DNA from: a virus
Lineage: Duplodnaviria; Heunggongvirae; Uroviricota; Caudoviricetes
Strand: one strand, 5' to 3'
IMG/VR virus record: IMGVR_UViG_2565956717_000009
Coordinates: 1 to 37,482 of that record
DNA: 37,482 bases
Positions 32,074 to 37,482 of the stretch are shown here, piece by piece (position 1 is the first letter of the stretch; each line of letters opens with the position of its first letter). Both the position numbers and the translations under genes were made by a program. The notes beneath the pieces were generated by a model that was not told the origin of the DNA, did no database searches, and worked only from the letters and a program-made list of their open reading frames with translations.

Positions 32074-32099
32074 TGCCCTCCAGTGTGAGGGCGATTTTT
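32074..32099 (+). terminator. tL1-like rho-independent terminator
   Basis: gccctc-cagtgt-gagggc followed by gatttttta. Confidence 0.55.
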
Positions 32100-32120: not shown

Positions 32121-32489
32121 ATGTCAAACATCAAAAAATACATCATTGATTACGACTGGAAAGCATCAATAGAAATTGAAATTGACCATGACGTAATGAC
32201 AGAGGAAAAACTTCACCAGATTAATAATTTCTGGTCAGACTCTGAATACCGACTCAATAAACACGGCTCTGTATTAAATGCTGTATTAATCATGCTGGCG
32301 CAACATGCTCTGCTTATAGCAATTTCAAGCGACTTAAATGCATATGGTGTTGTGTGTGAGTTCGACTGGAATGATGGAAATGGTCAGGAAGGATGGCCTC
32401 CAATGGATGGTAGTGAAGGAATAAGAATTACCGATATCGATACATCAGGAATATTTGATTCAGATGATATGACTATCAAAGCCGCCTGA
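32121..32489 (+). CDS. Ea10-like protein (by size and position; recollection)
   Basis: 122 aa between the N-proximal gene and cIII, as for lambda ea10. Confidence 0.45.
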   Translation: MSNIKKYIIDYDWKASIEIEIDHDVMTEEKLHQINNFWSDSEYRLNKHGSVLNAVLIMLAQHALLIAISSDLNAYGVVCEFDWNDGNGQEGWPPMDGSEGIRITDIDTSGIFDSDDMTIKAA

Positions 32490-32564: not shown

Positions 32565-32699
32565 ATGATGCACTTTCAGCTCGCGGGTAGCGGCGTCATG
32601 TCCGCTTTCTACCCGCACGAATCTGAATTATCACGCCGAGTTAAACAATTAATCAGAGCAGCAAAGAAACAACTGGAGGCCTTATGCGCAATGAAATAG
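32565..32699 (+). CDS. cIII: CIII-like protein (FtsH inhibitor)
   Basis: 44 aa from ATG 32565 with AAGGAG RBS at 6-nt spacing; amphipathic ESELSRRVKQLIRAAKKQLEAL resembles the CIII core helix. Confidence 0.55.
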   Translation: MMHFQLAGSGVMSAFYPHESELSRRVKQLIRAAKKQLEALCAMK

Positions 32700-32836
32700 C
32701 CATTAATCACCAGATGCTTCGTGCTGCACAAAACAAAGCAGTAATAGCCAGATTTATTGGTGATTCCAAAATGTGGCTTGAAGCAAATAAAGCGATGAAA
32801 TCAGCTATCAACCTTCCATGGTATCGCAGGAAATGA
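32684..32836 (+). CDS. kil: Kil-like small protein
   Basis: 50 aa, below the ORF-track cutoff; GGAGG RBS; ...IARFIGDSKMW... resembles recalled lambda Kil; overlaps the cIII end. Confidence 0.45.
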   Translation: MRNEIAINHQMLRAAQNKAVIARFIGDSKMWLEANKAMKSAINLPWYRRK

Positions 32837-32940
32837 GTTTTACAGATAACTGGTCAGACGAAGAGTTCATTCGTCAGATGAACAAAATGCTCAATCAGCA
32901 CAAAGAACAGGAGAAAGATGATGATTCTGACTCTGAATGA
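32833..32940 (+). CDS. Small acidic hypothetical protein, ATGA-coupled to the Kil-like gene
   Basis: 35 aa (MSFTDNWSDEEFIRQMNKMLNQHKEQEKDDDSDSE); could be non-coding. Confidence 0.25.
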   Translation: MSFTDNWSDEEFIRQMNKMLNQHKEQEKDDDSDSE

Positions 32941-33229
32941 TAAGCGTGAAATATCGCAAATAATCGCAAGTTTTACTGATGAAGATTACGAACGAATCAA
33001 CAGTGAAGTTGATCGCCTCTGCAAACGTTGCGACCCAATAAGCGAAATGCTTCGCTCATATAAACCAGATGAACACACTAAGGACGCTATCGACTGGCTG
33101 GAAGATGCTGACTGTAACTATCAGGAAAAAGCCGCTGAATGGTTCTGGGATGCAATAACCGAAAGAGTTAAGGCTGAATATGCCTTCGCAATATTCAAAC
33201 GCAGACACATTTATGGAGAAGCAGCATGA
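32918..33229 (+). CDS. Hypothetical protein immediately upstream of recT
   Basis: 103 aa; AGGAGA RBS; 4-nt overlap with the recT start. Confidence 0.5.
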   Translation: MMILTLNDKREISQIIASFTDEDYERINSEVDRLCKRCDPISEMLRSYKPDEHTKDAIDWLEDADCNYQEKAAEWFWDAITERVKAEYAFAIFKRRHIYGEAA

Positions 33230-34128
33230 GCAATATCGTTGAATTCGTTAAACAGCAGGAGCAGTTATTCTGCGGAGCATTGACTGAACAGACGGTGACA
33301 TGGGCTAAGGAAAGCCAGTTTGCAATTCAGTATTTCCAGAAAAACGATTACCTGGCTAAAACAGCACTGGCAAACCCAACCAGCGCACAGAACGCCATCA
33401 TCAATGTTGCGGCGATCGGCATCACCTTAAACCCGGCCAGCAAACTTGCTTATCTAGTTCCGCGCGACGGCATGGTTTGCCTTGATATCAGCTATATGGG
33501 ATTACTTCACCTTGCGCAATCGACAGGTTCTATTAAGTGGGGGCAATGCAAACTGGTGTACTCAAACGACACTTATGAATCAAATGGCCTTGATTCAGCA
33601 CCAACCCACAAATACAACGCATTTGGTGAGCGAGGCTCTATTGTTGGTGGTTATTGCACGGTTAAAACAGCAGATGGTGACTACCTGACTGAAGAAATGA
33701 GTCTGGCAGAAATTAAAGCAGTGGAAGCAACGAGCAAGGCAAAGAATGGACCGTGGAAAACATTCTGGGAAGAGATGGCGCGTAAAACAATAGTTAAACG
33801 CGCCAGCAAATACTGGCCTAAAGCCCAGCGACTGGATAATGCCATTCACCTGCTTAACGAAGATGAAGGTATGCATCAGGAACCAGTTATGCCGCACAAA
33901 TCAGAGGAAGATATCCACGAAGATGAACGGAAACGCCAGCAGGAAATAACGGATAAAGCACAACTTCTTTGTGATGAAATGGCCCAGGCTGAAAACATGG
34001 ATGATTTGAAGCGATATTTTGCAGAAGCATATCGCCTGACATCTGGAATGAAATTGCAGCAGAACGTACAAGCCATTTACATAGAATGCAAAGCGAAACT
34101 GGAGGTTGCCAGTGAGCAAACTATATGA
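33226..34128 (+). CDS. recT: RecT-family single-strand annealing recombinase
   Basis: 300 aa; ...KNGPWKTFWEEMARKTIVKRASKYWP... matches recalled E. coli RecT (NGPWVTHWEEMAKKTAIRRLFKYLP). Confidence 0.9.
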   Translation: MSNIVEFVKQQEQLFCGALTEQTVTWAKESQFAIQYFQKNDYLAKTALANPTSAQNAIINVAAIGITLNPASKLAYLVPRDGMVCLDISYMGLLHLAQSTGSIKWGQCKLVYSNDTYESNGLDSAPTHKYNAFGERGSIVGGYCTVKTADGDYLTEEMSLAEIKAVEATSKAKNGPWKTFWEEMARKTIVKRASKYWPKAQRLDNAIHLLNEDEGMHQEPVMPHKSEEDIHEDERKRQQEITDKAQLLCDEMAQAENMDDLKRYFAEAYRLTSGMKLQQNVQAIYIECKAKLEVASEQTI

Positions 34129-34594
34129 AATAGCCAATGAATACGCAAAATTGATGGATTCAGATTTAGAGCCAGAGATGATTGCTGACACAATAGAAGG
34201 CATGGAAGGAGAATTTACCGATAAAATAGAGCAACTTCTCGCCATTATTAAAAATGAATCTGGTTATGCTGAACGCCTCAAGGACGAGGCAAAGTCACTG
34301 AATGAACGAGCCGCAGTAATTCAAAATAAGATTGACAGCATTATGGCGTATATAGCGTCATCGCTTGAAATGGTTGGCAAGAAAAAGATTCGAGCAGGTA
34401 TCCACCAGGTAACAATCCGCAAACCGTCAGAAACTGTAGAAATCATCGACTCAAGCGCCCTTCCTCAAGAATACGTTGAGTTTGAAACGACAATTAAAGC
34501 CGACAAACTGGCAATCAAACACCAACTAAAAGCAGGAATAAATATCCCCGGCGCTCAACTCAAAGTTGGGAAACCTTCACTTCTTATCAAATAA
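34112..34594 (+). CDS. Gp157-family-like protein (recollection), GTG start
   Basis: About 160 aa, coiled-coil N-terminus; GGAGG RBS 6 nt before GTG 34112; overlaps the recT 3' end. Confidence 0.45.
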   Translation: MSKLYEIANEYAKLMDSDLEPEMIADTIEGMEGEFTDKIEQLLAIIKNESGYAERLKDEAKSLNERAAVIQNKIDSIMAYIASSLEMVGKKKIRAGIHQVTIRKPSETVEIIDSSALPQEYVEFETTIKADKLAIKHQLKAGINIPGAQLKVGKPSLLIK

Positions 34595-34605
34595 CGGTAT
34601 CGCCT

Positions 34606-34920
34606 ATGAAAAAGACTCCATGGGAGAAATGGGAAGTCGATTTCTTGCGCGAAGTAGCGGCGACAATGCCAGTTGAAGTTATCGCTGAAAAACTGGAAAG
34701 GACTGAAAAAGCAGTAATGGCGAAAGCAACAAGGATTGGCGCTGACATTGTTAGCCGACTTCGTGGAAGACGATGGACAAGAGCCGAAGTATCACTTTTC
34801 GGTAAGTTCTCCGCAGAAGAAATAGCAATTGCAACCTGCCGCTCAATTTATTCAGTAAGAGCTATGCGATACAAGCTAAAAAAACTCGATGAAGAAAGAG
34901 CAGGCATACGAATAAATTAA
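34606..34920 (+). CDS. Hypothetical protein
   Basis: 104 aa; basic; possible HTH-like segment (WTRAEVSLFGKFSAEEIAIAT); family unknown. Confidence 0.45.
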   Translation: MKKTPWEKWEVDFLREVAATMPVEVIAEKLERTEKAVMAKATRIGADIVSRLRGRRWTRAEVSLFGKFSAEEIAIATCRSIYSVRAMRYKLKKLDEERAGIRIN

Positions 34921-34936
34921 CATGGAGTAATTAACA

Positions 34937-35218
34937 ATGAAGCTAAACATCGACCTCGGCAAATACGTTATTACTGGAACAAAACGCGACCTGATTCTTA
35001 ATGAAAGAGGAATTATCAAAGAAGGTGAGAATGCAGGGAAAGAAACACTAAGCCGTATCGGTTATTACAGCAAGTTTGAGCATCTGGTCAAAGAGTTATG
35101 CAACCGTGAAATCCTGTTATCTCAGGCGCAGACGCTACAGGATATTCAGCAGCATATCGAAACTTTAGGTATGTCACTTAGCATGGCTATTGACCAGTTC
35201 GTGGAGAGTAAACCATGA
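34937..35218 (+). CDS. Hypothetical protein
   Basis: 93 aa ORF in the early-left operon. Confidence 0.45.
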
Positions 35219-35382
35219 GAGGACTTGCATACAATCCCGGCATTCTTCCGGCAGAAATGATTATTCGCCAACGCGTAAAGCCAATGCCATCGAGAGAGGA
35301 ATTGCTTAAAAGAAAGAGTTTCGGTTCTGTTAATGACAACAAATATCTGAATGCTATGTGGCGCAAAGGAGGCAACCAGTGA
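35215..35382 (+). CDS. Small hypothetical protein
   Basis: 55 aa, ATGA-coupled to the upstream gene; below the ORF-track cutoff. Confidence 0.3.
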
Positions 35383-35633
35383 GTAATTCAGCACGACTAC
35401 AGCTTGGTTTTTCACCGCTATCAAAAACTATCATGCTGGCAAAAATGCGCGATGTTGAAGGTGGACGTATGCGCGTTGGCAATGATCCAGGTCGTGATGT
35501 TACCAATGAGGCTGCTCAATTGGTGTGGCGACTGGTCATGGCTGAAGGTGGTGAGATCGCGCGGGAGCTGGATGATGGTTCTCGCATGGTGTTGAAGGCA
35601 GAAAAGCAGGAGGCAACCAGTGAGCCAGATTGA
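35379..35633 (+). CDS. Hypothetical protein bounded by a duplicated 16-bp junction sequence
   Basis: GTG start 6 nt after AAGGAGG; the RBS/start motif GGAGGCAACCAGTGAG recurs at 35609-35624. Confidence 0.4.
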
Positions 35634-36064
35634 TTATCAGGCACTGCGTGCTAAGGCAGAAAAAAGCAACGTGTGGCGAGTGGTCGCTCGAATATGGAGA
35701 GGGCCGATTTGATGGTGATGATGCGCTAATTCATCGCGAGGCTGCTGGATATATTCCTATTTGCAGAATTGAAGGAGCGCATCCAGAAAGCGGTTTCGAT
35801 GAAGATTTCCAAATGGAACAGCAGGCCAATGCTGAATTCATCGCCGCAGCCAATCCGGCTACCGTGCTGACACTGCTGGACGAGCTGGAAGCAGCAAAAA
35901 AGCGCATTGCAGAACTGGAAGCACGGGAAATATCGCTCCCAGAACGTAGCAGCATGCTTCATCGAACAGATTTTCACGAGGATTACCAAACGGTAATGGC
36001 ATACAAAGTTTCTGAGGTCATCGCTGCAATCCGCGCCGCTGGCATTCGCATCAAAGGAGAGTGA
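35620..36064 (+). pseudogene. Ea22-like protein with an apparent +1 frameshift at an A6 tract (35660-35665)
   Basis: GTG 35620 opens frame 1 ([15 protein letters not shown]...), which stops at 35710-35712; frame 2 continues (...ATCGEWSLEYGEGRF...MEQQANAEF...IRIKGE) to 36064; removing one A joins them into a single roughly 148-aa protein. Confidence 0.3.
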
Positions 36065-36065
36065 G

Positions 36066-36257
36066 ATGAACGGACAAATCTCAATTGTTCGACCGGGAGC
36101 ATGTGACGATCGCGAGATACGAATGATTATTCGTCTGGCGATGGGGAAAACAATAACAGCTCTCATTACTCCAGAAAATCTCGCATTAGCTTTAACCGGA
36201 AAGTCAGACCTGCCAGTGGAGCTAAAACTGCGAAATGTTGAGATTAAGGTGAAATAG
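36066..36257 (+). CDS. Hypothetical protein
   Basis: 63 aa; AAGGAGA RBS 6 nt upstream. Confidence 0.5.
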   Translation: MNGQISIVRPGACDDREIRMIIRLAMGKTITALITPENLALALTGKSDLPVELKLRNVEIKVK

Positions 36258-36259
36258 CC

Positions 36260-36874
36260 ATGACCACTATTACCAAAGAACGTATTGAATTGTTCATTAA
36301 AGATCCGCTTGAAAACGGGCTTACTCGTGGCGAACAAATGGAACTGGCACGAATTGCACTGGCATCACTGGAACGCGAACAGATTCGCCACGAGCATGCC
36401 AAATGGTCTGACTCCACATTTGGCTGCGTTGGCCCCATTGGTCCGCTGAAACATCTCTCAAAAGAGGCTCTGGAAGCCGCAGCCGAACCTGACGATCTCA
36501 GCGAGTGGGCTGATATGCAGTTCCTGTTGTGGGATGCACAGCGCCGTGCTGGTATCAGTGATGCTGAAATTACCGCTGCTATGGAAGATAAATTGAAGAT
36601 CAACATGAAGCGCCAGTGGCCTGAACCAAAAGATGGTGAGCCTCGCTTGCACATTAAAGAACCCGGCAACTCTCCGGTAACTCCGGATGGTTGGATAAGC
36701 TGTAGTGAGCGAATGCCAAGCGAAGAAGATGTTTTGGTTTATTGCTCAGACACAAAAGAGCAGATGGTAGGGTTTCACAAAGGTAAAGGGTTATTTCAAT
36801 TCTTTTACATGAATGGTGTTGAGGGGGTATGTGAGCCGTCACACTGGATGCCGCTACCAGAGCCTCCACTTTGA
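36260..36874 (+). CDS. DUF550/DUF551-type prophage protein (recollection)
   Basis: 204 aa; C-terminal ...PDGWISCSERMPSEEDVLVYC...HWMPLPEPP resembles DUF551. Confidence 0.5.
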   Translation: MTTITKERIELFIKDPLENGLTRGEQMELARIALASLEREQIRHEHAKWSDSTFGCVGPIGPLKHLSKEALEAAAEPDDLSEWADMQFLLWDAQRRAGISDAEITAAMEDKLKINMKRQWPEPKDGEPRLHIKEPGNSPVTPDGWISCSERMPSEEDVLVYCSDTKEQMVGFHKGKGLFQFFYMNGVEGVCEPSHWMPLPEPPL

Positions 36875-36970
36875 AAGCGAAGCTTATACATATCTTTTAC
36901 ATCAGCAATCTATTGTTAATCTCCAATCAATGTTACGTTGTCATCTCACTCATGCTTTGGAGGTAGTGAT

Positions 36971-37150
36971 ATGTCTTGTCCAAAATGCGGTTCTGGAAAT
37001 ATTGCAAAAGAAAAAACAATGCGTGGATGGTCTGGTGATTATGTGTGCTGCGATTGCGGATACAACGACTCTAAAGACGCATTTGGAGAGCGTGGTAAAA
37101 ACGAGTTTGTTAAAATTAATAAAGAACGCGAAGGCAACGAAAAAAGCTAA
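36971..37150 (+). CDS. Zinc-ribbon protein
   Basis: 59 aa from ATG 36971 with GGAGG RBS at 7-nt spacing; CPKCG...CCDCG pairs. Confidence 0.5.
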   Translation: MSCPKCGSGNIAKEKTMRGWSGDYVCCDCGYNDSKDAFGERGKNEFVKINKEREGNEKS

Positions 37151-37213
37151 TTTATTTATTCATATATTAAAACAATGTAACCAATATTCGAATTGAAGAA
37201 CTGAAAGAACACC

Positions 37214-37236
37214 AAGCCGCCTGATGGCGGTTTTTT
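37214..37236 (+). terminator. Rho-independent terminator
   Basis: gccgcc-tgat-ggcgg followed by tttttt. Confidence 0.55.
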
Positions 37237-37281
37237 ATTGCCTGATTTGCAGGTTCGATTCCCTATTCGGAGATAGCACTC

Positions 37282-37482
37282 ATGCAACACGAACTACAAC
37301 CTGATTCACTGGTTGATTTGAAATTCATCATGGCTGATACTGGCTTTGGTAAAACCTTCATCTACGACCGGATTAAGTCCGGCGACCTGCCTAAAGCCAA
37401 AGTTATCCACGGTCGAGCAAGATGGTTATATCGTGACCATTGTGAATTCAAAAATAAGCTCTTAAGCCGCGCCAATGGGTAA
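37282..37482 (+). CDS. AlpA/excisionase-family small DNA-binding protein
   Basis: 66 aa; ...LVDLKFIMADTGFGKTFIYDRIKSGDLPKAKVIHGRARW... resembles AlpA/Xis-type winged-helix proteins; stop is the last codon of the window. Confidence 0.55.
   Translation: MQHELQPDSLVDLKFIMADTGFGKTFIYDRIKSGDLPKAKVIHGRARWLYRDHCEFKNKLLSRANG

Follow-up and report, generated by a model that had tools for sequence, protein, structure and literature searches.

A repeated translation-initiation linker and a frameshifted Ea22-like gene in the early-left region of a P22/HK620-like prophage

The Ead/Ea22-like family (Pfam PF13935) includes the Ead protein of phage P22 and the Ea22 protein of phage lambda. Lambda Ea22 influences the lysis–lysogeny decision (PMC7093339), and the versions from both lambda and the Stx phages favour lysogeny (PMC7093339, PMC10834534). 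The prophage described here has a member of this family between the recombination genes and xis, where lambda carries ea22, but, unlike P22 Ead and lambda Ea22, its copy is frameshifted and would be incapable of making the family protein. It thereby resembles the prophage pseudogenes that arise from homopolymer frameshifts, such as the ead/Ea22-like genes labelled "frameshifted" by PGAP, with which it has in common that an accessory gene is disrupted by an indel of one base in a short run of A. Frameshifted Ea22-like genes of this kind are also present among its RefSeq relatives, e.g., in strain 09-00049, whereas the allele in question is a rare one, found in two assemblies.

The joints between the genes of this region have their own precedents. 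[quoted passage not shown] 2008; PMC2327257), and that study credits the HK620 genome paper (Clark et al. 2001, J Mol Biol 311:657) for the short conserved flanks. As far as the case of HK620 is described in that citation, it concerns the same phage group (Lederbergvirus/HK620-like), the same early-left accessory region and alternative modules at gene boundaries, as here; it differs from the present locus, where a direct repeat 241 bp apart surrounds a single gene. In the literature on junction sequences of the ea region, we found this indirect citation of Clark et al. and no direct description, while the epsilon34 genome paper held nothing relevant. The other close comparison is with the coupled ATGA/GTGA junctions of phage operons: like them, the linker considered below has a GGAGG 6 nt before a GTG and, in the first of its two copies, an overlapping upstream TGA. 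What sets it apart from them is only that an entire initiation region of 16–22 nt is identical across unrelated gene pairs. Neither the linker nor the Ea22-like frameshift is out of the ordinary: both are features of mosaic prophages that are already understood.

The window, i.e., the whole stretch of 37,482 nucleotides that we analysed, is a P22/HK620-like prophage with the tailspike and virion genes on the minus strand and the immunity genes, recT, the ea genes and torI (xis) on the plus strand. Positions 32648–37482 match Escherichia coli HVH 108 (GCA_000495095.1, scaffold KI538815.1) at 100%, and this strain is the likely source of the window, as an argW-type prophage. The early-left "ea" region, from recT to torI, can be viewed as a chain of small accessory genes that would be joined by a reusable junction.

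The linker and the genes it joins

The initial annotation had pointed to a 16-bp motif occurring twice, 241 bp apart. Two exact copies of this 16-mer (GGAGGCAACCAGTGAG) are indeed found at 35368–35383 and 35609–35624, compared to none in 100 dinucleotide-preserving shuffles, and a search of the window with up to 2 mismatches allowed returned no copy besides these. The true identity is, in fact, 17 bp (35367–35383 and 35608–35624, at the same spacing of 241 bp), and at the population level the linker is longer, with a form of about 22 nt (CGCAAAGGAGGCAACCAGTGAG). The features around it are as follows:

34101..34116, plus strand: diverged third copy of the linker, GGAGGTTGCCAGTGAG, at the recT/Sipho_Gp157 junction
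35215..35382, plus strand: DUF2737 gene, 55 aa (Pfam PF10930, 101.8 bits; gathering threshold 25)
35367..35383, plus strand: linker copy 1, AGGAGGCAACCAGTGAG, with the SD sequence GGAGG at 35368–35372, a 6-nt spacer, GTG at 35379 and TGA at 35380–35382
35379..35633, plus strand: DUF7446 cassette gene, 84 aa (Pfam PF24233, 61.5 bits, residues 7–79; gathering threshold 24.1)
35608..35624, plus strand: linker copy 2, the same 17-mer, holding GTG 35620, the start of the Ea22-like gene

Each 17-mer copy constitutes a whole initiation region—GGAGG, 6 nt and GTG—and the unit that repeats spans 241 bp, from GTG 35379 to 35619. DUF2737 and DUF7446 are joined by copy 1: the final codons of the former (…MWRKGGNQ) and its TGA stop sit within the linker, with the stop overlapping the next start (GTGA). 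Copy 2 joins DUF7446 to the Ead/Ea22-like gene, and is traversed by the DUF7446 frame (tail …KQEATSEPD) in a different frame from that of the Ea22-like gene. The DUF7446 stop (35631–35633) lies 9 nt past copy 2, i.e., 14 nt past the downstream start, resulting in a 14-nt overlap with the start of the Ea22-like gene. Hence, the earlier statement that the repeat exactly brackets one small gene holds on the left, where the gene starts at GTG 35379 inside copy 1, but not on the right, where it runs beyond copy 2. At both copies, the SD lies 6 nt before the start codon, within the 5–9 nt expected of a coupling junction, and the upstream stop overlaps or adjoins the start. The linker would accordingly be read as a translation-initiation and coupling element, with the coupling itself predicted from this arrangement of stops and starts. 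RNA folds of the two copies were no better than those of shuffled sequence, and a 19-nt inverted match (84%) between copy 2 and the 5′ end of torI was judged to be due to chance.

RefSeq relatives of the 84-aa gene are annotated as DUF7446 family proteins, and the exact protein sequence is found in a 327-member cluster. At the third, diverged linker copy, which is also present in the SCU-124 prophage, RecT reads through the element and ends in the tail …LEVASEQTI, like the …EATSEQD tails at other loci. No promoter-like sites were found in 34900–37482, where the only convincing terminator is at 37214–37233. This hairpin and its T-run are followed by TTGC-N5-TTGC (37238–37250) upstream of torI, and the segment 37214–37250 is identical to a region of HK620 annotated as a cII-binding site and integration promoter. 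Searches of Rfam at a permissive threshold with 33000–37482, and of NCBIfam with five proteins, returned no matches.

We then compared 237 related loci from RefSeq E. coli, HK620 and IMG/VR contigs, and scanned IMG/VR with the linker itself, which matched at least 120 contigs. The 237 listed loci contain 235 exact copies of the linker. Among the A5-pattern loci (n = 120), named for the A-run of the Ea22-like gene that is treated below, 58 show a lone linker at the start of Ea22, and in 18 (up to 20, depending on the count) DUF7446 is enclosed by a pair at the 241-bp spacing. In others, the linkers are spaced by 560, 626, 482, 256, 224 or 1695 bp and enclose Ea22 paralogues, a 161-aa ORF, an 89-aa ORF and other genes. 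The ORFs downstream of exact linkers in the listed loci fall into 14 protein clusters, 5 of them recurrent and unrelated, though some of the singletons may be chance matches to a 16-mer in a very large collection. On the upstream side, the preceding ORF stops in the GTGA with the tail …RKGGNQ at 160 copies in the listed loci, and reads through the linker in another frame with the tail …EATSExD at about 70. As the linker is thus read in two frames, its conservation is at the nucleotide level rather than that of the peptide.

These relatives support the original suggestion that a module was inserted at a conserved linker, for they include strain 09-00049 (L003) and 58 other one-copy loci without DUF7446 as well as other cassettes and unrelated genes behind the linker. 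For example, strain 09-00049 displays DUF2737, a single linker and the Ea22-like gene in succession, without DUF7446—the joint that is expected from gain or loss of DUF7446 at the repeat. DUF7446 itself occurs in 24 copies in the listed relatives, in at least 3 different left-hand contexts. Further, the window and the SCU-124 prophage cease to be homologous exactly at the start of the linker; in SCU-124 and HK620, DUF2737 has another tail and leads into a different module, and the hkaH/hkaG junction of HK620 shows the linker with one mismatch. In related phages, the same short sequence bounds alternative unrelated modules, and the presence/absence polymorphism has its joint exactly at the linker.

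A different kind of insertion is seen in five of the loci (L139, L166, L190, L198 and L224). Their 16-codon ORFs, which all stop at one and the same position, were considered as recurrent frameshifts and rejected as such: in the roughly 120 nt from the Ea22-like GTG, they are 5′ remnants of the Ea22-like gene (VSEINYQELRQVKEKA, then a stop) followed by inserted AT-rich foreign DNA. A second SEINYQE… start is found downstream, such that the conserved 5′ end of the Ea22-like gene is duplicated around the insertion.

At the level of DNA, identical linkers in front of unrelated cassettes would offer short stretches of homology for the gain, loss and swap of cassettes, with DUF7446 being one such cassette between DUF2737 and the Ea22-like gene. 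A phage single-strand-annealing recombinase, e.g., the RecT encoded 1.3 kb upstream, would be a likely agent, and replication slippage between the direct repeats an alternative one. The minimal efficient pairing segment of Redβ is 23–27 bp (PMC3945230). Since the 17 bp of perfect identity fall short of this, a linker by itself would recombine with low efficiency, and part of the pattern could stem from exchange in longer flanking homology, such as the 3′ end of DUF2737 and the conserved 5′ end of Ea22. It is from the positions of the joints that we infer recombination at the linker as the mechanism.

The A-run and the second null allele of the Ea22-like gene

The second part of the locus comprises the following features:

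35620..36064, plus strand: Ead/Ea22-like gene, a putative pseudogene of 445 nt compared to 444 nt in intact homologues (147 aa)
35620..35712, plus strand: predicted truncated mutant product, 30 codons, the last 15 out of frame
35660..35665, plus strand: A6 run, the frameshift site, at codons 14–16; A5 or AGAAA in intact alleles
35663..36064, plus strand: remaining Ea22-like coding sequence in the +1 frame; in the source annotation, a 138-aa hypothetical protein from GTG 35648
36066..36257, plus strand: next gene, 63 aa, predicted to be coupled to the Ea22-like stop (GGAGAGTGAGATG)

The initial annotation had noted that the frame opened by GTG 35620 stops after 30 codons while another frame continues, and had placed the switch at the A6 run. 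Our analysis agrees on each count: the first ORF ends at 35712, the other frame is open to 36064 (listed ORF 35630–36064, 144 aa) and an alignment with two close relatives, whose Ea22-like genes are intact (147 aa) and have A5 or AGAAA at the site, puts a single extra base in the run. There is, therefore, no intact ORF for a PF13935 protein in the window, as the frame from GTG 35620 is broken. Once repaired to A5, the gene codes for a 147-aa protein that matches PF13935 with 80.9 bits (E = 1.8e-22, residues 2–107; gathering threshold 27), the match covering only positions 1–90 of the 139 in the profile. Since this match begins at residue 2 and extends across the A-run, the gene does begin at GTG 35620. 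The competing proposal of a gene starting at the internal ATG 35813, with a spurious ORF upstream of it, fails, as the homologues have conserved coding sequence upstream of that codon.

The closest intact allele lies on an IMG/VR contig (L097), whose sequence differs from that of the window across 35214–36270 only in lacking the extra A; over 34933–37482 (2,550 bp), the two differ by 10 mismatches, with the extra A as the single gap. An ordinary one-base insertion, converting A5 to A6 at codons 14–16, would end translation from GTG 35620 at 30 codons. The A6 allele would then be a null (pseudogene), with the loss of Ea22-like function being predicted from the premature stop. The translation of the 63-aa gene that follows (36066..36257) may also be affected by this upstream stop.

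Two inactivating changes, the A6 frameshift and a nonsense mutation, fall in the first 21 codons of the same allele. With the latter, W21* (L238–L244), TGG is changed to TGA by the equivalent of 35683 G>A, while A5 is intact. It is found on at least 14 contigs (GCV89862.1, GCX27596.1 and several Logan and ENA assemblies), for which gene callers list just the 83-aa product from ATG 35813; the identical intact Ea22-like protein is on 15. Among the loci of the W21* set, L238–L242 lack the DUF5405 gene that occupies 34937–35218 in the window; this gene is a presence/absence cassette whose joint in those loci is at the start-codon region (…ACCATGA…), without the linker.

Competing explanations

Taken as a whole, the locus is very probably explained by a linker-joined cassette, with the linker acting both as RBS/coupling element and as short homology, together with a null Ea22-like gene created by a one-base insertion. 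The extra A could in principle be a homopolymer sequencing or assembly error that conceals an intact Ea22-like gene in the true prophage: only one base of a homopolymer is involved, and nothing else separates the window from the intact L097 allele across some 1 kb. Moreover, the A6 40-mer is absent from 5,426 complete E. coli genomes (A5 control: 127), as is the A6 24-mer from IMG/VR, GTDB representative genomes and JGI metagenomes (A5: 119 IMG/VR contigs). However, an exact protein look-up recovered the out-of-frame 138-aa product both as ESP44114.1 of HVH 108 and on an ENA metagenome scaffold (ERZ28601782, KORP19-1 scaffold_680; L245), which was independently sequenced and combines the A6 with 12 substitutions relative to the window. 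Additionally, about 26 kb of the window that are 99.3–99.7% identical to SCU-124 show no gene-breaking homopolymer indel. On these two grounds an error, as had been allowed for in the initial annotation, is very improbable, and the A6 is, on the comparative evidence, a real inherited frameshift mutation. Of the options first offered, it is thus the pseudogene that stands, with intact homologues of 444 nt and the A6 in two assemblies. The two carriers probably share the mutation by descent and so confirm its reality, though not its recurrence. The third option, a slippage-prone site, can be put more broadly as a programmed or usefully leaky recoding site, at which +1 ribosomal frameshifting or transcriptional slippage would yield the full-length Ea22-like protein. 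A tRNA-Lys on AAA 35662–35664 could re-pair perfectly on AAA 35663–35665, and 5 nt upstream there is a TAAGG that partly resembles an SD; yet the TAAGG is found in in-frame alleles too, and all homologues examined read through the site in one frame. An A5 is what 127 complete E. coli genomes and 119 viral contigs have here; the A6 form was not found in the former collection, nor A4, A6 or A7 in IMG/VR, and the site varies among 93 related genes of the listed loci (GAACGT, GAGAAA, GAAAAA and others). The downstream RNA structure is not significant (z = +0.48 versus shuffles). Efficient transcriptional slippage needs runs of about 8–9 nt or more, while this one is of 6 nt, and the lack of A4, A6 and A7 forms in IMG/VR is not the pattern of a phase-variable tract. 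Neither a conserved two-frame architecture with a shift motif nor a stimulatory element specific to the shift allele was found. Given that every homologue does without frameshifting, that the run lacks conservation and that a stimulatory structure is missing, we regard the site as not programmed: neither recoding nor phase variation at the A6 is supported by the comparison of alleles, and such a role is extremely improbable.

For the linker, the counterpart of these alternatives is that the 17-mers are alike through RBS convergence or chance, with no cassette having been inserted there. The motif is, after all, a canonical SD and start codon, which translational selection could favour independently at each site, but the spacer CAACCA and the AG after the start are identical too, where chance would predict no such match. 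The form of about 22 nt recurs in more than 200 copies before unrelated genes and in two reading frames, the presence/absence joints are clean and, elsewhere in this operon, genes are joined through RBS sequences of quite another kind, all of which makes convergence very improbable. A more debatable alternative is that loss of the N-terminus of the Ea22-like protein has been selected, either because the full-length form is costly in lysogens or because the re-initiated 83-aa form from ATG 35813 is functional. Two independent nulls on 16 contigs together, against 15 for the identical intact allele, a remaining prophage that looks intact and the action of lambda Ea22 on the lysis–lysogeny decision (PMC7093339) would fit with such selection. 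Against it, ATG 35813 has no SD, accessory prophage genes commonly decay and the contig counts are inflated by clonal strains; as these counts are not independent, selection for loss is only a minor rival, and we hold it to be unlikely. Somewhat more doubtful still is a combined scenario, in which the linker would be a dedicated nucleotide-level signal for cassette exchange—a homology-driven analogue of the integron array, serviced by the phage annealing recombinase—and the A6 and W21* knock-outs would be products of selection on lysogens, not of neutral decay.

Certain further observations were made in the course of these comparisons. An A6 that is in frame (GCTGAAAAAACA, AEKT) occurs at the equivalent position in seven Ea22-like genes of the listed loci (within L125–L237), indicating that A6 is tolerated when in frame. 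The only clean homopolymer indel in the roughly 26 kb compared with SCU-124 is at 32095 (T7 versus T6 in SCU-124), which is intergenic and upstream of the ORF at 32121. On the metagenome scaffold L245, nearly all of the 12 substitutions are concentrated in the gene at 36260–36874 (at 36445–36625), suggestive of a small recombination patch; the protein it encodes is of a fusion type, combining DUF551 with a dATP/dGTP pyrophosphohydrolase domain (PF04447, formerly DUF550). The recT gene of the same scaffold (about 569–1481) is split into calls of 30 aa and 218 aa on account of an N run (scaffold gap) at the equivalent of window position 33306, and not of a mutation.

Significance for the ea region of lambdoid prophages

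The significance of the locus goes little beyond annotation. The "hypothetical protein" ESP44114.1 of HVH 108 (138 aa) is what is left, out of frame, of an Ead/Ea22-like gene with a frameshift; likewise, the "hypothetical proteins" of 83 aa, GCV89862.1 and GCX27596.1, represent the tail of the W21* allele of that gene. If the P22-type Ea22-like proteins act on the lysis–lysogeny decision like lambda Ea22, these natural nulls would be ready material for testing that role. More generally, the locus provides a worked example of how the exo–xis/ea accessory genes of lambdoid prophages would be shuffled at a reusable initiation/coupling junction.
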